A DNA stretch of 63,700 nucleotides, counting the filler. It is 6 parts of 6 records of this genome, joined end to end, with 100 filler letters (N's around TTAATTAATTAA, not from the genome) between each part and the next. Parts side by side here need not be neighbours in the genome. Positions count along the whole stretch, not along the records: positions 43,627 to 50,716 come from SRR31156797_2381; 5 more parts are not named here. One strand, written 5' to 3'. Both the position numbers and the translations under genes were made by a program. Numbering within the stretch: the stretch's first letter is position 1; each line of letters begins with the position of its first letter. The notes beneath the pieces are model-generated. The model was not told the DNA's origin, ran no database searches, and was given only the letters and a program-made list of their open reading frames with translations. Positions 7,001 through 50,816 of this stretch are shown one piece after another.

Positions 7001-7752
7001 TGGGCGTGGCTTTATTACAAGTTGAAGGTCTGGTGAAGAATTTCGGCGGGGTGACGGCCCTGAACCGGGTGAGTTTTGAAGTTGAGGAAGGAACCCTGTT
7101 GGGCATTATCGGGCCGAACGGCTGCGGCAAGACAACCCTGGTGAACTGTATAACCGGGTTTATAAAACCAAATTCGGGATCGGTCCAATACAGGGGCCGG
7201 GACATCACCGGCATGCGGCCGTCCCGGATAACCAACCTCGGAGTCGGGCGGACGTTCCAGATGGTCAAGCCGTTTTACCGGCTGCCTGCTTTCAAAAACC
7301 TGATTATCGCCCTTTCCTCGCCCAAGGTGAAAAAGACGGGCGGCCATTACGGCGACAAGGATTCCATGGCCCTGGATATATTGGAGGAGATCGGATTTGA
7401 AAGAGATTCGGCCATTCCCTTTCAAATGGCCAACGTCTTGCCTCACGGGTATCTCAAGAGGCTGGAGATGGGCCGGGTAATAGCTTTGCAAAGCGATCTG
7501 ATTATTTTTGACGAGCTTTATTCAGGCCTCAGCCTGGCTGAAGTGTCCAGCATGACGCCGCTGATCGACAAACTGCTAAAGGCGGGCAAGACCTTGATTA
7601 TGGTCGAACACCGGCTCAAGGAACTGTTTCGGATCGCGGACAAGGTTTTGGTTATGGACCAGGGCGGAGTTATAGCCCAGGGAACCAGCGGGGAAATAAT
7701 GAAAAATGAAGAAGTCCAGAAAGCTTACCTGGGCGTGGAACTGAAAAAATGA
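7000..7752 (+). CDS. Liv-type ABC ATPase (LivG-like)
   Basis: Walker A GPNGCGKTT, GRTFQ, VEH switch. Start placed at ATG 7000 (TAATG overlap). Confidence 0.88.
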   Translation: MGVALLQVEGLVKNFGGVTALNRVSFEVEEGTLLGIIGPNGCGKTTLVNCITGFIKPNSGSVQYRGRDITGMRPSRITNLGVGRTFQMVKPFYRLPAFKNLIIALSSPKVKKTGGHYGDKDSMALDILEEIGFERDSAIPFQMANVLPHGYLKRLEMGRVIALQSDLIIFDELYSGLSLAEVSSMTPLIDKLLKAGKTLIMVEHRLKELFRIADKVLVMDQGGVIAQGTSGEIMKNEEVQKAYLGVELKK

Positions 7753-8504: not shown

Positions 8505-10125
8505 CGGTAAATCGATTTACCAGGTCTTTGAGGAAACGGCTAATAAAAATCCGAACAAAACAGCCCTGATCTTTTTAGGAGAAAAATATTCCTACAGGTT
8601 TCTGAAAGAGGCTGCTGAAACCATGGCCGGCGCGTTCAAGGACCTGGGGCTTAATAAAGGCGAGCGGGCGATTATTTACATCCCGAATTGTCCACAATGG
8701 GTGGTCGCCTGGTTGGGGCTGCAGAGACTTGGCGCCGTTCCTGTTCCGGTCAGCCCGATTTACACGGTTCACGACCTTCATTATATTGCTTCCGACTCCG
8801 GGGCCAGGCTCATTTTGTGCGGCGACACAAATTTTGGATACGCCAAGACAGTCAGGGAAATGGGCGTTCTTGATAAAATCATTGTCACCAATATCGCGGA
8901 CATGCTGCCCTGGTGGAAAAGGTTGATCGGTTTCGGGTTTGACCGCATTCCCGAAGGCAAGGTGGAATCGGAAAACATACTCCGTTTCAAAGACCTGATT
9001 CGCGGTAAAAAGGATGCATCCCCGCCTGCCGGTTGTGATGAAGATGAATACCTGGAAATTCTATACACCGGCGGCACGACCAAGTTCCCCAAGGGTGTGC
9101 CGATCTGCCATAAAGTGTATTGCGAATCCTTTCTGGCCCAATTGGAGGTCAGCGATCCCCTGGTTCCCTTGAATGAAAATATAATCGTCCAGGGAGCGCC
9201 CCTTTTTCACGTGCTGGGACAGCTTTTCGGGTTAGGCCCCATTTGCATGACCGGCGCCACGGTCATCCTTATGCCGAAAGTCAACCTGGACGCCATGATG
9301 CTCTATGTGCAGCGATACAAGGCCAAGACTCTTTTCGGCGTGCCCACATTGTATAGAATGCTGCTTGAGCACGATCGCCGGGATTATTACGACCTTTCAT
9401 CTCTTCAATACTGTTTCACCGGGGGCGACGTATTGCCCATGGAGGTGCTTAAGAGATGGAGGGAACATTACGGGACGAGAATTTACCAGGGATACGGGGC
9501 CACAGAGACCTGCGGCGGCGTGACCATGGTTCCGGTCACCGGCGATCCTCCTGATGATTCCATCGGAACGGTCATGCCTCAAAAGAGAATAAAAATCGTG
9601 GACCCGGAAACAATGGCGGAAGTTCATGAAGGCGAATCCGGCGAACTAATTGCGACATCGGATAATATGATCACCGAGTATTGGAACAAGGATGAGGAAA
9701 CACTCGAGTGTTTCGTGGAGATAGACGGGGAGCTTTGGTACAAGACCGGCGACCTGGTCAGGCTGGACGAAAACGGACACATGTATTTTGTCGACCGCAC
9801 CGCCGACATTATCAAGCACAAGGGTTACCGCATTTCCGCTTCCGAAATCGAGGCGGCCATCAAAGACCATCCCGCTGCCATATCAGCCTGCGTGGTGGGG
9901 ATTCCCGACAAGCGAGTGGGTGAGAGAATCAAGGCCTTTGTCGTTTTAAAGGAGGATTCCCAGGGCATGACCGGGGCTGAAATGATCAAATGGTGCAAAA
10001 CCAAACTGACTTCATACAAGGTCCCGGACTACATCGAGTTCAGGGACATGCTGCCCAAGTCGAAAGTCGGCAAGTATTTAAGGAGGGAACTCAGGCGGGA
10101 AGAGCGTGAGAAAGCAACGATGTAA
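8497..10125 (+). CDS. AMP-forming acyl-CoA synthetase (ANL superfamily)
   Basis: YTGGTTKFPKG, GYGATE, KTGD and LPKSKVGK motifs. Confidence 0.92.
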   Translation: MSNGKSIYQVFEETANKNPNKTALIFLGEKYSYRFLKEAAETMAGAFKDLGLNKGERAIIYIPNCPQWVVAWLGLQRLGAVPVPVSPIYTVHDLHYIASDSGARLILCGDTNFGYAKTVREMGVLDKIIVTNIADMLPWWKRLIGFGFDRIPEGKVESENILRFKDLIRGKKDASPPAGCDEDEYLEILYTGGTTKFPKGVPICHKVYCESFLAQLEVSDPLVPLNENIIVQGAPLFHVLGQLFGLGPICMTGATVILMPKVNLDAMMLYVQRYKAKTLFGVPTLYRMLLEHDRRDYYDLSSLQYCFTGGDVLPMEVLKRWREHYGTRIYQGYGATETCGGVTMVPVTGDPPDDSIGTVMPQKRIKIVDPETMAEVHEGESGELIATSDNMITEYWNKDEETLECFVEIDGELWYKTGDLVRLDENGHMYFVDRTADIIKHKGYRISASEIEAAIKDHPAAISACVVGIPDKRVGERIKAFVVLKEDSQGMTGAEMIKWCKTKLTSYKVPDYIEFRDMLPKSKVGKYLRRELRREEREKATM

Positions 10126-10143: not shown

Positions 10144-10243
10144 NNNNNNNNNNNNNNNNNNNNNNNNNNNNNNNNNNNNNNNNNNNNTTAATTAATTAAN
10201 NNNNNNNNNNNNNNNNNNNNNNNNNNNNNNNNNNNNNNNNNNN
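10144..10243. other. Artificial contig spacer
   Basis: 100-nt N run containing TTAATTAATTAA. Confidence 0.98.
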
Positions 10244-16370: not shown

Positions 16371-16470
16371 NNNNNNNNNNNNNNNNNNNNNNNNNNNNNN
16401 NNNNNNNNNNNNNNTTAATTAATTAANNNNNNNNNNNNNNNNNNNNNNNNNNNNNNNNNNNNNNNNNNNN
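16371..16470. other. Artificial contig spacer
   Basis: N run containing TTAATTAATTAA. Confidence 0.98.
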
Positions 16471-29217: not shown

Positions 29218-29317
29218 NNNNNNNNNNNNNNNNNNNNNNNNNNNNNNNNNNNNNNNNNNNNTTAATTAATTAANNNNNNNNNNNNNNNNNNNNNNNNNNN
29301 NNNNNNNNNNNNNNNNN
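29218..29317. other. Artificial contig spacer
   Basis: N run containing TTAATTAATTAA. Confidence 0.98.
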
Positions 29318-43526: not shown

Positions 43527-43626
43527 NNNNNNNNNNNNNNNNNNNNNNNNNNNNNNNNNNNNNNNNNNNNTTAATTAATTAANNNNNNNNNNNNNNNNNN
43601 NNNNNNNNNNNNNNNNNNNNNNNNNN
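43527..43626. other. Artificial contig spacer
   Basis: N run containing TTAATTAATTAA. Confidence 0.98.
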
Positions 43627-43627
43627 G

Positions 43628-43657
43628 GTTAAAATCAGACCTTAGAGGGATTGAAAC
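43628..43657 (+). CRISPR. Single 30-bp CRISPR direct repeat of methanogen type (no array visible in the contig)
   Basis: GTTAAAATCAGACCTTAGAGGGATTGAAAC. The 5' GTTAAAATCAGACC is typical of methanogen repeats; the 3' ATTGAAAC is the Cas6 handle of I-B/III repeats. One copy only, 1 nt from the contig edge. Confidence 0.75.
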
Positions 43658-43658
43658 C

Positions 43659-43721
43659 TGGCACGAAGTTTGGTCGAGAGTCGTAAAAGATATACCAGAG
43701 TTAGAATATATAAGAAAATAG
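43659..43721 (+). pseudogene. C-terminal fragment of a gene, possibly a viral head-morphogenesis (MuF-like) protein
   Basis: Reads WHEVWSRVVKDIPELEYIRK* and stops 10 nt before the next ATG. The family is inferred from context only. Confidence 0.4.
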
Positions 43722-43731
43722 GGATTGTGAC

Positions 43732-43968
43732 ATGACAGGCGGTATTTTATTGGATGATAGTACGGATTCTGAGATTCTATACAGCCCGGTCTGCACTTTT
43801 TGTAAGCATCTTCGTAGTCCTACCCTGAACCCCAATGGCACGAGTCACAACACATGTGATGCTTTTCCAGATGGGATTTCTGGTGAGATATGGAAAGGTG
43901 ACAACGACCATAGAAAACCTTACCATGGGGATAATGGAATTCAGTTTGAATCGCGTGGTAAACAATGA
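43732..43968 (+). CDS. Small Cys/His-rich protein, copy 1 (virus-associated type)
   Basis: 78 aa; CxxCxH...CDAFPDGI...DHRKPYHGDNGIQFE. Confidence 0.75.
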   Translation: MTGGILLDDSTDSEILYSPVCTFCKHLRSPTLNPNGTSHNTCDAFPDGISGEIWKGDNDHRKPYHGDNGIQFESRGKQ

Positions 43969-44138
43969 CCTTAATAATTCCTCAGTGTGACTATTGCAGT
44001 CACTACCGCGAGCATCAGAAATGTGATGCTTTCCCCGGAGGGATTCCTATGGACATCCTGTTAAATGAAGTAGATCACCATAAGCCATACAACGGTGACA
44101 ATGGAATTCAGTTTGAGAAACGGCTGAATGGTGGTTAA
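43965..44138 (+). CDS. Small Cys/His-rich protein, copy 2 (paralogue; not in the ORF track)
   Basis: 57 aa MTLIIPQCDYCSHYREHQKCDAFPGGIPMDILLNEVDHHKPYNGDNGIQFEKRLNGG; ATGA overlap with copy 1. Confidence 0.8.
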   Translation: MTLIIPQCDYCSHYREHQKCDAFPGGIPMDILLNEVDHHKPYNGDNGIQFEKRLNGG

Positions 44139-44139
44139 T

Positions 44140-44688
44140 ATGGATGCCGACGAGCGAATGCTTAGCGCTCTTCAAATGGAATTGGAGAGAGGGCGGGACA
44201 TCTATGACAAAGTTAAACATGTTTCCACCATTTCTGGTATACTAATTGGATTTATTTTAACTTCGTTGAGTTTATTACAGACACAAACAGAAGTGTTGTC
44301 ATCAATAAAAAATTCCACGCCTTTGTTTATATTGATTTCAGTGATATTGTTTATTGCTGGTCTTAGTGTTTATGTGTACATGGTGGTCGATTTTCAATAT
44401 TTTGTTGTTGAAAAGGAAGTAATCGAACGTATATATAACAACCAAAATACCGACCAGCTTGAGAATATCCAAGGCCAAAACAATAATAGACAACGGTATC
44501 TTGTTATTGGATTTGTAGCCTTCGTCGAAGGGCTTGTAGCATTGTTTGTAAGTATGGCAGGCATAATAGATGTTATGTTTGAGACTCCAAAATGTCTTTT
44601 TAACATCGTTTTTTGGTTAGGAATTATAGTAGGGACGGCTACTCTTTTTCTCGTTTATTTTAAAGTGTATAAGAGAATAGATGGGTAA
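44140..44688 (+). CDS. Hypothetical 4-TM membrane protein
   Basis: Four hydrophobic segments; GGTGG RBS before ATG 44140. Confidence 0.65.
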   Translation: MDADERMLSALQMELERGRDIYDKVKHVSTISGILIGFILTSLSLLQTQTEVLSSIKNSTPLFILISVILFIAGLSVYVYMVVDFQYFVVEKEVIERIYNNQNTDQLENIQGQNNNRQRYLVIGFVAFVEGLVALFVSMAGIIDVMFETPKCLFNIVFWLGIIVGTATLFLVYFKVYKRIDG

Positions 44689-44831
44689 CGCTCAGCAACC
44701 GCCACGGAGGTGGCTGACCTTTGGGTTGTAACCCACGAAATGCCATCATATGCCTTAAGGAACTCGTCGAGCGAGATAAAATCGAAGGTGTCATGAAAGG
44801 CTGAACATGGGGATTCAGGTTAAAAAAATAA
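44689..44831 (+). pseudogene. Degraded small winged-HTH gene
   Basis: SATATEVADL [frameshift] LGCNPRNAIICLKELVERDKIEGVMKG*TWGFRLKK reads as a wHTH with one frameshift and one stop. Confidence 0.55.
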
Positions 44832-44854
44832 ACAAAACCGCTCTGTTATTGCAT

Positions 44855-45721
44855 TTAAAAATATACTTTAACATGGTTTATTACAATTGTGAAAAAAGGC
44901 TTCAAGAACTCATATTTAGTATCAAGTAAAGCAATTATACCAAGCAAACTAAGTAAGTGGGCCAACATCCCATCTTTTACAGACACAAGCGTATCTTCAA
45001 AAAAACTGGGTTTTGAGTAGTGCTCTTCGACATGATTTTTTGTTTCAGCATACAATGCTTCATCAAAATTTTTGACAACAAGATTGATTTCGTTGCTGAA
45101 ATCTTTTAATTGTGTTACATTTAACTGTTTTTTAGTAGCAAATATATTTGTATCTAATTCTTTTAAAAAGTCACAAACCAAAAAGAGATTGAAATTGTCT
45201 TTCTGTATCAATTTCAATGTGAAATCGGAGAATAAATCTACATTTTTGTTTGTTTGTTTTCGTTCTTCGTCTATTGAGATACAAGCTGAATCGACCTTTT
45301 TAACGTGTCTTTTGAGATGGAGCATTAATGACAGATATGTTCTTTGAAAATTTCTTAATGCATTTTTTTTGTGATATTGATTAGTAGATAAATGATAGCT
45401 TAGGATGTTTGAAATCGTTAATTTGTAAGTAATATAAAATGAAATGTCCTTTAGAATGGGATAAGCTACTACAAATACTAAGAACAGTAACAAAATCGTG
45501 CTGGTGGCATAACTAAAGTTTATAATTGATACCTTAAAGTCAGATGCAAAAATCACATATAATGTGACTACAGATAATGAAAAACGCGAAATGTGCTTAT
45601 CTATGATTAAAAAATAATACCAAGCATGGTGATTTTTAAGAATCGATGAGAAATATTTGTAATAGTAATTATAAAAATGATTCCTATAAGGAGATTTTTT
45701 ATCCCTCATCAAATCCACCAC
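44855..45721 (-). CDS. Hypothetical membrane-anchored protein (possibly extends to ATG 45826 across an in-frame TGA)
   Basis: 288-aa AT-rich ORF with hydrophobic segments; 34 further in-frame codons lie upstream of TGA 45722-45724. Confidence 0.6.
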   Translation of the reverse strand: MVDLMRDKKSPYRNHFYNYYYKYFSSILKNHHAWYYFLIIDKHISRFSLSVVTLYVIFASDFKVSIINFSYATSTILLLFLVFVVAYPILKDISFYITYKLTISNILSYHLSTNQYHKKNALRNFQRTYLSLMLHLKRHVKKVDSACISIDEERKQTNKNVDLFSDFTLKLIQKDNFNLFLVCDFLKELDTNIFATKKQLNVTQLKDFSNEINLVVKNFDEALYAETKNHVEEHYSKPSFFEDTLVSVKDGMLAHLLSLLGIIALLDTKYEFLKPFFTIVINHVKVYF

Positions 45722-46068: not shown

Positions 46069-46974
46069 ATGTCTAAATTTTATGTTGATTTTTTACAAGA
46101 CTATCCCCTATACAGAAAACACGAAGTTGAAGATTCAAACATTTTTGACGAATTTAAAAATACTGCAATTTATGTGTATTGCAAAGAATGTGGATCTGAA
46201 CAGTCTTTTGTTCATTATGACACATTACATGGAGCAAAAGTTCGCGATTTTCTTAGCTCCCCAGCACCTCCTATAACAGGTGGCAAAGCAATGATAGCTA
46301 TGCCAAACCCAGTATCGTTCAAATCAAAGTTGAAAAATGTGGATGAGTTTGTCATACATCTGGATTTTATATGCAAAGGTTGTGGTAAATCCCATAGATA
46401 TTTTTCGATTAAAATTATAGATGATTTTTCTTTAATTAAAATAGGTCAATATCCTCCTTATGATATCTCAGTACCATCAAACATTTCGAAAGCATTGGAT
46501 GAGAAAAATACCGAGTTATTCAAAAAGGGGATAATTTGCGAATCACAAGGATATGGCATTGCAGCATATGCTTACTATCGTCGTATTGTAGAATTGATTA
46601 TAGATGATTTGCTCAATGATATTTCAGAACTAATCGAAAACAGCGATAACAAACAAAAGTACGAAGAAACACTGGAAAAAACAAAAAGAACGACGGTCAC
46701 CCAAGAGAAAATTGAACTTGTAAAAGATTTACTTCCATCGAGTTTAAGACCGGGTGGATTAAATCCTTTGGGTATTTTGCATAGCACTTTGAGCGAAGGT
46801 TTGCACTCATTATCAGACGAGACATGTATCGATGTTGCAGAGGAAATCAAAACTTCTTTGGTGTACCTAGTCAGCGAAGTGCTTAGACACCAACAAGAAT
46901 CAAAGATATTTTCGGCAAGTATGGGTAAGATACTGGATAAGAAGTCCAAAAGAAAAAAAGAAGGTGACCAATGA
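46069..46974 (+). CDS. Zn-ribbon protein with helical C-terminal domain (DUF4145/HEPN-like, tentative)
   Basis: CKEC...CKGC pair, KIGQYPP, AYYRRIVE and LSEGLH; AGGTGG RBS. Confidence 0.7.
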   Translation: MSKFYVDFLQDYPLYRKHEVEDSNIFDEFKNTAIYVYCKECGSEQSFVHYDTLHGAKVRDFLSSPAPPITGGKAMIAMPNPVSFKSKLKNVDEFVIHLDFICKGCGKSHRYFSIKIIDDFSLIKIGQYPPYDISVPSNISKALDEKNTELFKKGIICESQGYGIAAYAYYRRIVELIIDDLLNDISELIENSDNKQKYEETLEKTKRTTVTQEKIELVKDLLPSSLRPGGLNPLGILHSTLSEGLHSLSDETCIDVAEEIKTSLVYLVSEVLRHQQESKIFSASMGKILDKKSKRKKEGDQ

Positions 46975-47339
46975 AAGAATCAGCAATTCTCAAGCTATCA
47001 GAAGCTCAAATTGAAAAAATAGAGCGGGTTAATGAATCAATTGAGCGTAAGGAAAATGCAATTGCTAGAAAAGAATCGCAGATGAAACTTCGGATTCTTT
47101 TTGAACGTGCTGCTCATGAGACGTTGCCATTCATTGTTTATGTCATCTACATGGGATGTATGGGGCTGTTTGTTTTATTCAAAGTACTTGATTATGAAGG
47201 AGAAAAACTATACATAGCATCGTTTTTACTGTTTGCTATAATGATAATCCCATTGTTTGTGCTGCCCATACACGCTTGGCAAGGATTGAAAAACTGGTTT
47301 AAAAGTAAAATAGGAAAACAATCCGAGGAAGTTAAATGA
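46971..47339 (+). CDS. Hypothetical protein, coiled-coil plus 2 TM
   Basis: ATGA overlap with the upstream gene; charged helical N-terminus, then two hydrophobic helices. Confidence 0.6.
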   Translation: MKESAILKLSEAQIEKIERVNESIERKENAIARKESQMKLRILFERAAHETLPFIVYVIYMGCMGLFVLFKVLDYEGEKLYIASFLLFAIMIIPLFVLPIHAWQGLKNWFKSKIGKQSEEVK

Positions 47340-47809
47340 TTCCTGATGATGTAGTGGGATCACCTGTTAACCTACTTGCAACAGTGTGTGCTATCTCATT
47401 ATTGATGCTTTATTACACCACACTGTCGGTTTATCAAGTGTTTACGTGGGCAATATTAACATTTCCTATGATGCTTCTCTGGAATGACAAAGATAAGGCG
47501 GTAATGTGTTCCGTTTTGTTATTTGTGGCTGAAATATGCCCCAAAACTAATCTTTTTACTATAACTCTCAACATTCAAATAAAAAGCTCACCGCCCGCGG
47601 ATAAGTGGTGCAGCTGGTTGGTATGCAAAAAGGGTGGTTTTTTGAATACTTGTGGGTTGTAGCTGCACCATTTAGACACAAAAACTAGTATCATATAAAA
47701 TTTTTTGATTTTGTTCTGTTTCAACTTTCCTTTTAATACCCTTTTGTTAAACTTAATAGGATGAAGTTAAATCGATAAATTGATAATTTTGCAATGTATT
47801 GTTGAATAC

Positions 47810-48490
47810 ATGAGTGAAATTGAGGAAACTTCAAAAGCTATTGCGGAAACTGCAAAATTTGGAACAAAGGCTCTTGATACTGGTGACAAGTTAGGCGGCT
47901 TTCTATCAAAAGTATTGGGATACCCTACTGAAGAAGCAATTGGAATAGTTGGAGACGCGTTGAAGTATAAGCGTTGGCAACGCCAAGTCAGAATGATTGA
48001 TAAGGTTAATGATGATCTTGAAAAGAGAGGGGTTGAAAGTGTTAGACCAATTCCTCCAAAACTTGCAATTCCCATGATTGAAAATGCAAGTTTGGAAGAA
48101 GATGATGACTTGCAAGATATTTGGTGCAGACTTATTGCGAATAGTTTAGACCCGAGCTTTCGTTTAGATATCAGGTATGCATACATTGAAGTCATTAAAA
48201 GCCTCTCATCCCTTGATGCGAGGATTTTAAGTATGCTCTACAAGAACTCTCAACAACCGTTTTTAAGATCGAAACATCTTTTTACTGATGAGATATTCAA
48301 GAGAGTTTTACGATTAAAGTATACAGGAATGGATTATGATATTTCTTTACTAAATTTACAAAGATTGATGTGCATAGAACATGTACTTGTTAAAAGGGCA
48401 TACGCCGATGCAACACAAGAAATCAGAGACCATCGTCAATATTCACTTACTATCTTCGGCATGTTTTTCGTTAAAACTTGTATGGAATAG
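47810..48490 (+). CDS. Abi-alpha (DUF4393)-like protein
   Basis: RPIPPKLAIPMIENASLEEDDDLQDIWCRLIAN, YIEVIKSLSSLDARIL, SLLNLQRL and LTIFGMFFVKTC match the pattern of this family. Confidence 0.7.
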   Translation: MSEIEETSKAIAETAKFGTKALDTGDKLGGFLSKVLGYPTEEAIGIVGDALKYKRWQRQVRMIDKVNDDLEKRGVESVRPIPPKLAIPMIENASLEEDDDLQDIWCRLIANSLDPSFRLDIRYAYIEVIKSLSSLDARILSMLYKNSQQPFLRSKHLFTDEIFKRVLRLKYTGMDYDISLLNLQRLMCIEHVLVKRAYADATQEIRDHRQYSLTIFGMFFVKTCME

Positions 48491-48581: not shown

Positions 48582-48638
48582 ACTCTGTATTTTTTGCCAT
48601 AAAACTTTTATACCGTTGCCATACACCCTAAATCGCTA

Positions 48639-48962
48639 ATGGTAATTATTTCAGGAACAGCATTTCCATTAGACGAACTCAATTCAAGTGGATGGTGTGT
48701 CCCATCATCAGAGGCAGACAATGCCATCTCTTCTCTCAAAAATGCTGTTATCCGAGTATGTCCCAGGTTTTCTCCCCACGGATGTGACCTTTCTGAAGAC
48801 CCAAAGGCCGAGATAGGCAGGGTACTTGATGCCTGGAAAAAAGGCAACGAGATCAAAGCCAAGGGCGATATCACTGATCAAGTAGCTTCTGCGAAGATCC
48901 AGGACAGAACATGGCCAAGGGCTTGGCAAGACCTGCAATATGGATTCCACTTGAAGATGTAA
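48639..48962 (+). pseudogene. Truncated prohead-protease-like viral gene
   Basis: ISGTAFPLDELN..GW, H...EIGRVLDAW and IKAKGDI resemble the N-terminal half of caudoviral prohead proteases. The ORF ends abruptly and no capsid gene follows. Confidence 0.5.
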
Positions 48963-49087
48963 AGGGGCTTAAGACACTGGTTGGTGAAGGTTTAAACCAG
49001 CAGCAGATAGCAGACTATTATACGGAAAGAGGTATTGAGGTAACGCGGTCTACGGTATCCCGTAAAATGAAAGAGTGGAATCTCTAA
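48911..49087 (+). CDS. Small HTH protein or HTH-domain remnant (not in the ORF track)
   Basis: 58 aa ...ARPAIWIP...GLNQQQIADYYTERGIEVTRSTVSRKMKE, an HTH pattern. Confidence 0.55.
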   Translation: MAKGLARPAIWIPLEDVKGLKTLVGEGLNQQQIADYYTERGIEVTRSTVSRKMKEWNL

Positions 49088-49199: not shown

Positions 49200-50375
49200 T
49201 CACAATCCATCCACAAATGTCCCAATTCTCTCCAGGGCTTTTTCGATTTCCTCGAGGGATGTCGCATAGGAGCATCTCAAAAAGCCAGTACCTGCTTCAC
49301 CGAACACGTTGCCGGGGATCGTGACAACTCTTTGTTCGTTCATCAGGCGTTCTGCGAAGTCCTCGGAGCTTAGGCCTGTGCTCTCTACGGATGGGAAGGC
49401 GTAGAATGCGCCTTTTGGTTCGAAGCATTCAAGGCCGATCTTGTTCAGGCCGTTGACGATCAGGTGGCGGCGGCGGTCGTAGCTGCGGACCATGCGCTGC
49501 ATTTCGTGCTTGCCGTTTTTGAGGGCTTCGATGGCGCCTATCTGGGCTGTGATGGGGGCACAGAGCATAGAGTACTGGTGTATCAGCATCATGGCGCTGA
49601 TAATTTCAGGGGATGCCATTGCATAGGCCAGTCTGAAACCTGTCATTGCGTATGCTTTGGAAAAGCCGTTTAGCAGGATAGTCCTGTCCCGCATGCCTTC
49701 AAGGGCTGCAAAACATGCATGTCCACCGTTATAGGTCAGGCAGTCGTAGACCTCATCGGAAATAACCATGATATCATGTTCGCAGACCACATCTGCAATA
49801 GCCTCAAGCTCTTCCCTGTTCATAGTAGCCCCTGTGGGGTTGTTCGGGAAGTTGATCATGACTGCTTTTGTCTTTGGTGTGATCGCAGCTTCAAGTTCTT
49901 CAGCTGTCAGCTTGAAATTATTCTCAATTTTTGTTGAGATAATAACAGGAACTCCGCCTGCAAACATCACGGAAGGCACATATGCCACATATGATGGCTG
50001 CACGACAATAATCTCGTCACCTGGATTAGTGATAGCTCTTATAGCTACATCCAGTGCTTCACTGACTCCTGAAGTAACAAGGACCTCGGAATCGGGATTG
50101 TATTGCACACCGTACTTCATGGAGAAATGTCTGGCCAGCTCTTCCCTGAGCTCAATAAGGCCGTAATTAGATGTATATGAGGTTTCGCCACATTCCAGTG
50201 AATGAATGCACGCTTCCCTGATGTGCCAGGGAGTAACATAATCCGGCTCACCTACACCAAGGGAGATAACATCCTCCAGACCTGATGCAAGATCAAAATA
50301 GCGGCGTATGCCCGACGGGGGAACCCTGTCCATTACATCCGCTACGAATTTTGAAGGCATGCATGCTTTTCTCAT
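49200..50375 (-). CDS. Class I/II PLP-dependent aminotransferase
   Basis: LGVGEPD, NNPTG, ISDEVY and GFSKAYAMTGFRL motifs. Confidence 0.93.
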   Translation of the reverse strand: MRKACMPSKFVADVMDRVPPSGIRRYFDLASGLEDVISLGVGEPDYVTPWHIREACIHSLECGETSYTSNYGLIELREELARHFSMKYGVQYNPDSEVLVTSGVSEALDVAIRAITNPGDEIIVVQPSYVAYVPSVMFAGGVPVIISTKIENNFKLTAEELEAAITPKTKAVMINFPNNPTGATMNREELEAIADVVCEHDIMVISDEVYDCLTYNGGHACFAALEGMRDRTILLNGFSKAYAMTGFRLAYAMASPEIISAMMLIHQYSMLCAPITAQIGAIEALKNGKHEMQRMVRSYDRRRHLIVNGLNKIGLECFEPKGAFYAFPSVESTGLSSEDFAERLMNEQRVVTIPGNVFGEAGTGFLRCSYATSLEEIEKALERIGTFVDGL

Positions 50376-50401: not shown

Positions 50402-50716
50402 TTACGGAGTCACCGGTAAACGTGTAACATGGTCCTGCTCGTGGAGGATAACGCCATCCTCTTTGTAGGTCTTCAGGACAAAATGTGTTGAAGTGTGTTG
50501 TACCTGTTCAAGGGTGGATATCTTCTCAGCAACAAAAAAGGCAACTTCCTTCATTGTCTTGCCGGAAACAGTAAGTGAAAGGTCGTATTGTCCGGACAGG
50601 AGTCTGACAGAACGTACTTCCGGGAATTTGTACAGGCGCTCAACAAGGGGCTGGTATCCAATTGTTCTTTCAAGGCTTACCTTAAGCTCAATAATTGCAT
50701 AGACGTTTTCATCACC
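50402..50716 (-). CDS. Lrp/AsnC-family regulator, C-terminal part (5'-truncated)
   Basis: Manual translation ...LYKFPEVRSVRLLSGQYDL...TSTHFVLKTYKEDG...; the common Lrp plus aminotransferase pairing. Confidence 0.85.
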   Translation of the reverse strand, partial: GDENVYAIIELKVSLERTIGYQPLVERLYKFPEVRSVRLLSGQYDLSLTVSGKTMKEVAFFVAEKISTLEQVQHTSTHFVLKTYKEDGVILHEQDHVTRLPVTP

Positions 50717-50816
50717 NNNNNNNNNNNNNNNNNNNNNNNNNNNNNNNNNNNNNNNNNNNNTTAATTAATTAANNNNNNNNNNNNNNNNNNNNNNNNNNNN
50801 NNNNNNNNNNNNNNNN
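50717..50816. other. Artificial contig spacer
   Basis: N run containing TTAATTAATTAA. Confidence 0.98.

Follow-up and report, generated by a model that had tools for sequence, protein, structure and literature searches.

A solitary type I-B CRISPR repeat joined to a truncated viral head gene at the start of a Methanolobus-like contig

The window analyzed here, a stretch of DNA of 63.7 kb, is composed of six unrelated contigs separated by N-linkers (10144-10243, 16371-16470, 29218-29317, 43527-43626, and 50717-50816). The GC contents of the contigs are 51, 50, 62, 45, 38.5, and 31%. Because of this span from 31 to 62%, the contigs clearly derive from different organisms, and features on separate contigs are not neighbors. 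The subject of this analysis is the fifth contig (positions 43627 to 50716; 7,090 bp, 38.5% GC), which carries at its very start a junction between a CRISPR repeat and the end of a viral head gene.

The repeat and the viral gene stump

Analysis of the first 95 nucleotides (nt) of the contig revealed the following features.

43627, plus strand: G, the one base that precedes the repeat, at the start of the contig
43628..43657, plus strand: intact 30-nt CRISPR repeat GTTAAAATCAGACCTTAGAGGGATTGAAAC of the Methanosarcinales type I-B family, an exact match to 29 public loci
43658..43694, plus strand: candidate former spacer/protospacer of about 36-37 nt, the first viral bases, delimited by the spacer length mode and the break at 43657/43658
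43659..43721, plus strand: 3' stump of a phage minor head/head-morphogenesis gene, last 19-20 codons plus stop (tblastn; 50-55 of 64 nt identical to each of seven relatives out of seven)

The 30-mer is a genuine and widespread type I-B CRISPR repeat of the Methanosarcinales. When one genome per prokaryotic species was scanned for exact matches, it was found in 29 loci, which belong mostly to Methanosarcina, Methanolobus, Methanoperedens, and unclassified Methanosarcinales; two are from metagenome-assembled genomes (MAGs) labeled Thermoplasmata and Bacilli. An earlier note on this DNA would have been refuted by a 30-mer that matches no array repeat of related genomes, and these exact matches dispose of such a chance similarity. 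The public arrays contain up to 112 copies with a period of about 66-67 nt, and the spacers between the copies are 32-46 nt long (mode, 36-37 nt). In Methanolobus vulcani, an array of the repeat adjoins genes for Cas3, Cas4, and the type I-B Cas1b (TIGR03641, 479 bits; cutoff, 304). Comparison of the repeat with Rfam revealed CRISPR-DR2 as the best match, with 24.6 bits (E = 0.033), below the gathering score of 37. About 5% of the internal repeats are variants (hits versus exact copies). In arrays with a visible end, the terminal repeats of this family mostly differ at the 3' end, where they read ...GAAAT or ...GAAAA or are decayed.

The same note had described an intact 30-bp repeat 1 nt from the contig edge, with no second copy and no cas gene. 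This description was borne out in full. The repeat occupies 43628-43657 of a contig that starts at 43627, GTTAAAATCAGACCTTAGAGGGATTGAAAC is the sole copy in the whole window at up to 3 mismatches (matching shuffles, 0 of 100), and scans of the contig (43627-50716) revealed neither a second repeat nor a cas gene. With one copy, the contig does not contain a CRISPR array, understood as at least two repeats with a spacer of 32-46 nt between them; the contig edge hides the upstream side.

The sequence after the repeat is translated as WHEVWSRVVKDIPELEYIRK followed by a stop, which corresponds to residues 458-476 of a 477-amino-acid (aa) phage minor head protein with 95% identity (tblastn). The protein end noticed after the repeat can thus be assigned to a particular gene. 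The full-length homolog from the family genome G080 matched phrog_115 "minor head protein" (1.9e-15). Where the gene is intact (G080, G074, and the metagenome locus L067), it encodes 463-477 aa and is located after the portal gene. A DNA search of the family for the viral sequence immediately behind the repeat revealed homologs in G080 (82%), G072, G074, and G101, four genomes in all, and scans with degenerate patterns revealed homologs in one IMG/VR contig and in two metagenome contigs. At all seven homologous loci, conserved coding sequence continues upstream of the point that matches 43658, and the gene is full length or longer.

Comparison with these seven relatives locates the breakpoint. 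Downstream of 43658, the contig is identical to each of them at 50-55 of 64 nt (78-86%). In the 31 nt upstream of 43658, it is identical to them at 7-10 positions, which is the level of chance; among the seven homologs themselves, 14-28 of the same 31 positions are identical. On these alignments, the homology break is placed exactly between 43657 and 43658, that is, at the boundary between repeat and spacer. All seven comparisons therefore place foreign sequence from the first base after the repeat onward, as in a product of spacer-protospacer recombination. The viral gene lies in direct orientation to the repeat, which a deletion requires. Viral homology that starts exactly at the position where a spacer would start is what a spacer-protospacer relation predicts, and such a start could have arisen by real recombination or by a walk of the assembler.

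The segment 43700-43731 was also considered as a decayed terminal repeat, so that 43658-43699 would be a last spacer of 42 nt. Its alignment score is at chance (1.4-4.7%): segments that score at least as high number 27 among 1,974 in the same contig and 58 among 3,668 in the sixth contig, and 142 of 3,000 shuffles do so as well. This reading is refuted, as the segment is homologous to the end of the viral gene and the intergenic region of the relatives.

The viral relic and the host flank

The remainder of the contig contains the following features, listed from the viral to the host side.

43732..43968, plus strand: 78-aa small Cys-rich protein (phrog_33375, 3e-08), encoded directly after the minor head gene in relatives
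43965..44138, plus strand: 57-aa paralog of the 78-aa protein, with a common motif in the translations and no family match
44128..44688, plus strand: 186-aa predicted membrane protein (phrog_8552, 2.5e-05)
44855..45721, minus strand: 288-aa open reading frame (ORF; cargo), no significant family match
46069..46974, plus strand: 301-aa protein (cargo) of viral family phrog_25239 (4.9e-39), 77% nt identity to a gene of G072
46971..47339, plus strand: 122-aa ORF (cargo), weak match to phrog_29862 (0.0033)
47780..48490, plus strand: Abi_alpha-domain protein, abortive-infection-like defense candidate (PF14337, 1.8e-26, 93.8 bits, cutoff 29; PADLOC PDC-S47, 1.1e-15)
48591..48962, plus strand: promoter-like element and 5' fragment of a prohead protease/scaffold gene (residues 1-105 of 327, 65% identity)
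48911..49087, plus strand: helix-turn-helix protein of 58 aa where relic and host meet (68% aa identity to a gene of G077; Arg_repressor DNA-binding domain, 1.3e-05, under the Pfam cutoff)
49200..50375, minus strand: class I/II aminotransferase of the host (PF00155, 1.8e-73; 89% aa identity to M. vulcani; best nt identity, 85%)
50402..50716, minus strand: conserved neighbor gene of the host, incomplete at the contig end (tblastx, 94% aa identity to M. vulcani)

Two viral gene fragments remain between 43658 and 49200, namely, the tail of the minor head gene (19 residues) and the first 105 of 327 residues of the protease (48639-48959), and these bracket an accessory block of 4.9 kb. The wording of the earlier note, which had the repeat continue into kilobases of provirus-like genes, is overstated, as no more than these two fragments is left of the viral genes around the block and host genes begin at 49200. 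The provirus of G074 contains terminase, portal, minor head, small-protein, protease/scaffold, capsid, and connector genes, and that of G080 contains the same head module from the portal gene onward. The contig contains no portal or capsid fragment and thus no head-tailed (Caudoviricetes-like) provirus module. No integrase was seen among the 10 ORFs of the contig that were scanned, and no tRNA or attachment (att) site was found between 43627 and 50716. The viral part is a relic rather than a provirus: an accessory region from which both structural flanks have been deleted.

The small protein next to the minor head stump has a 77-aa homolog at the equivalent position in G074. The tandem 78-aa and 57-aa proteins have a Cys-rich motif in common, C..C...CDAFP.GI...H.KPY.GDNGIQFE. 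At the other border of the block, 48591..48962 has 73-80% nt identity to G080, G074, G072, and G001. Upstream of the protease gene, within 48591-48638, lies a promoter-like element of ~37 nt with a TATA-like TTTTATA. The 37-nt element is repeated at 100% identity in the G080 provirus (L049, G080:C127, positions 2186-2222 and 7007-7043). The first 213 bp of the protease coding region (48647-48859), which encode its N terminus, occur in many genomes of the family, often in two copies.

In two relatives, the genome locus L050 (G072:C36) and the metagenome contig L066, an insert of several kb of genes interrupts the minor head gene, at a site between about residues 240 and 278. The insert in G072 carries the homolog with 77% nt identity to the 301-aa phrog_25239 gene (46069-46974). 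The split site may be an insertion hotspot or the site of a mobile cassette. In the G080 provirus, no terminase is present, and a 519-aa protein borders it on the left (L049, 227-1786); the N terminus of this protein is presumably SIR2-like, judged by its look. The G080 provirus may thus also be a truncated provirus in a defense context.

The right end of the contig (49198-50716), with the aminotransferase and its neighbor gene, has 81% DNA and 89% protein identity to M. vulcani. Comparison of this host end with 177 family genomes revealed a top DNA identity of 85%. Because the best identity is only 85%, the host is, as far as these two genes indicate, an undescribed species of the Methanolobus group. 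A gene encoding 163-172 aa occupies the position of the 50402..50716 gene in all four closest relatives. Synteny with the host ends at 49200, and on the relic side of the aminotransferase each of the four closest relatives carries a different gene. With four different neighbors in four relatives, this site is a variable hotspot. The relatives were searched for an array close to the aminotransferase, and none was found; the arrays of M. vulcani lie on a different contig from its aminotransferase.

Origin of the junction

The right answer is very probably among the four options offered by the earlier note, which were spacer-protospacer recombination, a virus-borne solitary repeat, a plain deletion next to the last repeat of a host array, and an assembly chimera. 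The first of these is favored here: with a probability of about 0.45, the junction is a real recombination scar, in which a type I-B array collapsed onto the stump of the provirus that it targeted. The identity of the repeat, the truncated gene, the base-exact breakpoint, and the anatomy of the relic are what can be read from the contig, and to these the recombination scar would add a spacer, a crossover, and a collapsed array.

According to this proposal, one spacer in the type I-B array of a Methanolobus-like archaeon would have come from a head-tailed virus, a member of a family common in Methanosarcinaceae, and more precisely from the 3' end of its minor head gene. A crossover would then have occurred through the identity of ~36 nt between spacer and protospacer. 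In a cis route, it would have been a deletion between the array and a downstream provirus in the same orientation, plausibly selected for ending self-targeting by Cas3; in a trans route, an infecting genome would have crossed over and later decayed. Either way, the product would be the repeat, then a spacer identical to the protospacer, and then the remaining virus. What lay in between would have been lost, from the later repeats and the trailer to the viral genes as far as codon ~457 of the head gene. The event probably took place at the leader-proximal, newest spacer, which would have reduced the array to one repeat. Further decay would have left the accessory block, with Abi_alpha and other genes, between two viral gene stumps.

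The assembly graph bears on whether such a molecule existed. Run X1, the one run in which the sequence was found and a possible source of the contig, was available as contigs of a k=31 graph. A 9,406-nt contig of X1 with a depth of 40 ends with 43627-43656, and a 31-nt unitig with a depth of 330 consists of 43627-43656 plus one further base, which is not C. The contig under study opens with the same 30 nt as both of these pieces. Because an overlap of 30 nt equals k-1 in a 31-mer graph, the three pieces meet at one node. In a de Bruijn graph, a contig that starts one base before the repeat would need the ...GAAAC form to have one predecessor and one successor. By this logic, the graph suggests that the ...GAAAC form of the repeat has a single context in the sample; the abundant array repeat probably ends in another base and reads ...GAAAT, as in G080 and G074. 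Since an ordinary multicopy ...GAAAC array would break the contig at 43628, and branches from such an array or from a chimera through an ordinary spacer would break it there or at 43658, the graph context appears to favor a real junction.

The same graph is also the ground on which an assembly chimera has to be weighed, as chimeras are a common cause of odd contig ends. The assembler would have walked in the k=31 graph from the repeat, through 31-mers shared with an ordinary spacer of 36-37 nt, into the relic on the chromosome, and no such molecule would exist. The contig does start exactly at the k-1 overlap node of a high-depth hub repeat (the unitig with a depth of 330), spacers of 32-46 nt are long enough to share 31-mers, and a base-exact start of homology is expected from a chimera just as from a real junction. 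G074 provides a second case in which viral sequence runs into the repeat where a contig piece ends, the region there being stitched together from read-sized pieces. Against this, a chimera through a shared spacer would create branches at both ends of the spacer, and pruning both the upstream branch of the relic and the branch from the spacer to the next repeat would call for contradictory coverage ratios, if the assembler logic has been judged correctly. The ...GAAAC form moreover seems to have a single context, while the hub form differs in its last base, so that a rare variant repeat (~5%) would have to precede the spacer. A chimera is a serious explanation, albeit an unlikely one, disfavored by the logic of the de Bruijn graph.

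The base before the repeat provides a second line of evidence. In 13 of 13 leader-to-repeat junctions (L004, L008, L009, L012, L016, L017, L019, L021, L023, L026, L028, L029, and L061; 12 distinct arrays, as L021 and L061 are the same array), a G precedes the first repeat, the leader ending in ...CTTG or ...CTTGG. The leaders in these 13 rows read ...GGC(T/A)AAAA...(G/C)CTTG directly before the first repeat. Spacers end with G in 154 of 638 cases (24%). The G at 43627 thus modestly favors a leader-adjacent repeat, with a likelihood ratio of about 4. A leader-adjacent repeat would imply that an event at the newest spacer cut the array to one copy, and the single-context repeat together with the leader-type G points to the newest spacer. 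These two observations favor a real fusion and a collapsed array over a chimera.

The leader-type G also concerns the third option, in which a host array ended in a variant terminal repeat, the one seen here, and an unrelated deletion, by illegitimate recombination, happened to have its end points at the last base of that repeat and inside the head gene. Terminal repeats usually vary at the 3' end, which fits a variant copy with a single context; the terminal repeat of another locus, L001, directly abuts coding sequence; and the site beside the aminotransferase, with its four different neighbors in four relatives, is prone to change. A random end on the exact boundary of the repeat is improbable, no base of a trailer is left, and the preceding G is more in keeping with a leader than with the end of a spacer, although a spacer-end G has a likelihood of 24%. 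With the base-exact junction left unexplained, a plain deletion appears quite unlikely.

Several results weigh against a recombination scar. The contig begins 1 nt before the repeat, and the upstream sequence lies beyond its edge. Among the graph contigs of X1, none was placed over 43657-44898 and none across the junction. Among the 636 unique public spacers of the repeat, none matches the junction site; in comparisons of these spacers with the contig, with ~250 kb of provirus loci, and with another 185 kb of loci, matches were at the level of chance, at no more than 22 nt. The junction pattern was found in 0 of 284 Methanosarcinales genomes. The 30-nt repeat has no copy in the five closest relatives of the host, so that a type I-B locus in this host is hypothetical. 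The protospacer-adjacent motif (PAM) fits only in part. The relatives carry GCA (three times), ACA (three times), and TCA (once) at the PAM position. Table 1 of PMC8482600 gives TTA as the PAM of one Methanosarcina I-B repeat cluster, and the same source reports mostly T or C at positions -3 and -2 where the repeat has A there. With T or C expected at both, only position -2 fits generally. For the earlier note's recombination option, the base-exact break, the apparent single context of the repeat, and the leader-type G speak in favor, and the missing spacer speaks against.

A wider search for viruses gave no further link. The 112-spacer array L006 had no match among 50,697 phage records, and the contig itself produced only a chance match of 71 nt to Vibrio phages among the same records.

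The sequence of the relatives also bears on a repeat that the virus itself carried, as a solitary repeat or mini-array acting as an RNA anti-CRISPR-like decoy or as a weapon against other viruses, and that the relic inherited. Such elements are known, as described in the parts of PMC10651486 and PMC6858448 drawn on here. Neither the repeat nor its 28-nt core was matched in 2.9 million IMG/VR contigs. Eight IMG/VR relatives, found with an alignment of the minor head protein, and the loci L065-L067 contain no repeat-like sequence at up to 7 mismatches, and the proviruses of G080, G072, and G101 contain no copy. It would also be unexpected for a functional decoy to lie fused to the coding end of a head gene that is essential.

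One copy of the repeat, in the ...GAAAT form, lies between terminase and portal in the G074 provirus (L055, G074:C110, positions 9543-9572, minus strand), and the 2.0-Mb genome has no other. The arrangement in the contig would result if a deletion ran from this copy to the end of the head gene. The copy sits at the edge of a run of 284 N, in a region stitched together from pieces of 203-352 nt. The flanking N-runs in G074 (203-284 N) correspond to 0-7 nt in the 88-95% identical provirus of G080, a run of 237 N corresponding to 1 nt. The N-runs are therefore scaffolding artifacts, and the copy at the edge of one of them is not interpretable. No DNA homolog of the region upstream of this copy was found in G080 or G072. 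The virus-borne option is weakened by the absence of the repeat from IMG/VR, from the eight relatives, and from the intact related proviruses, and it is held to be highly unlikely.

Beyond the four options, a virus could have integrated site-specifically into a CRISPR repeat, as PhiAP1.1 does, and undergone internal deletions afterward. Prophages in CRISPR repeats are documented in the part of bioRxiv 10.1101/2020.10.09.333658 used here, often with one terminal repeat left. In the contig, viral sequence at the junction starts within a head gene (codon ~458) and not at an att site next to an integrase, none of the 10 scanned ORFs resembles an integrase, and the repeat is intact and not split. 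Integration is barely probable on these grounds.

If the recombination scar is real, the fusion might still work as a self-protected immune module with one guide, an idea to which we give little probability. Transcription from a leader promoter would run through the single repeat, which Cas6 would cut to leave the handle ATTGAAAC, followed by CTGGCACG... of the relic. The guide loaded by Cascade would be the first ~36 nt of the relic, with the 3' end trimmed. Immunity to relatives of the virus would be kept, and the copy in the contig would be safe, with the end of the repeat occupying the PAM position. In this way, a self-targeting accident would have turned into a guide that is permanent and heritable, runs on physically into the domesticated remnant of its target, and lies next to an Abi gene.

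Known systems and loci with a single repeat copy

Recombination between phages and CRISPR loci mediated by spacers was reportedly found in staphylococci by Varble in 2019. The present case, as proposed, is like that one in the crossover at a short identity between spacer and protospacer and in a product that joins a repeat to phage sequence starting at the protospacer. It is unlike it in setting: there, a laboratory system of bacterial type II/III with a transducing phage, and here, an archaeal type I-B system in a natural sample, with a relic on the chromosome and a proposed deletion. Recombination of phages with CRISPR loci by way of a spacer is also cited in the portion of PMC10608574 consulted. 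Self-targeting of an integrated element selects for deletions that remove the target or its PAM, as reported for the I-F system of Pectobacterium (PMC3630108) and the I-B system of Haloferax (PMC7521656). Unlike in the contig, where the array would have been consumed as well, the deletions described in the available parts of these two sources end at repeats, insertion sequence elements, or microhomologies and not at a spacer.

For PhiAP1.1 of Streptococcus pyogenes, the accessible part of bioRxiv 10.1101/2020.10.09.333658 describes an integrase-mediated event at an 8-bp identity of attP and attB inside the repeat. Like the relic, that provirus lies beside a CRISPR repeat, often with one repeat left and the spacers deleted as a by-product. 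The contig differs in that the repeat is intact and the viral end lies inside a structural gene, with no attP in the repeat and no integrase-proximal end. RNA anti-CRISPRs and mini-arrays are similar to the contig in the lone repeat beside viral genes. As far as the excerpts of PMC10651486 and PMC6858448 go, those elements are conserved, intergenic, and located in active viruses, whereas the repeat studied here is absent from the related viruses examined and fused to a truncated gene. In outcome, the case resembles phage-CRISPR recombination and self-targeting deletions, and it lacks the defining features of PhiAP1.1 integration and of virus-borne repeats.

The mechanism is thus known in principle, and the evidence here is a single contig edge. 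A real junction would be a natural, archaeal example of recombination between an array and its target via the spacer, a process known mainly from bacterial laboratory work. It would represent one natural resolution of self-targeting, in which the array collapses and the provirus is truncated, and it would show how accessory and defense genes of a provirus, such as Abi_alpha, become stranded in a defense hotspot of the host. Whatever the mechanism, the widespread family of head-tailed proviruses in Methanosarcinaceae would be tied to the type I-B system of this repeat only if the start of homology reflects a spacer. For k=31 contigs that open with a repeat followed by viral sequence, proof at the level of reads is needed before a biological interpretation.

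Single intact copies of the 30-nt repeat were also found at L003 (Methanosarcina sp. KYL-1), L025 (Methanosarcina sp. Z-7115), and L010 (the MAG labeled Bacilli), in isolate and long-read assemblies. Natural loss down to one intact copy therefore does occur, which supports a collapse of the array. As proposed for the contig, one intact copy survives array loss at these loci. Unlike in the contig, with its protospacer-like start, the copies there follow a spacer of another array and are followed by ordinary flanking sequence: each lies where an array built from a different 37-nt repeat (...CACTAAAACAAGGATTGAA.) ends on the trailer side. The three arrays look like hybrid or collapsed arrays. The long-read "Bacilli" contig of L010, with its Methanosarcina-type repeats, may have been misbinned or may reflect a transfer.

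In L001 (2491-2726), from another MAG, the contig ends exactly with the repeat. A complete ORF of 73 aa is present there, whose last five codons and stop are read from the reverse complement of the repeat, so that the array end abuts the gene with no trailer between them. The 73-aa protein is presumably HicB-like, judged by its look.

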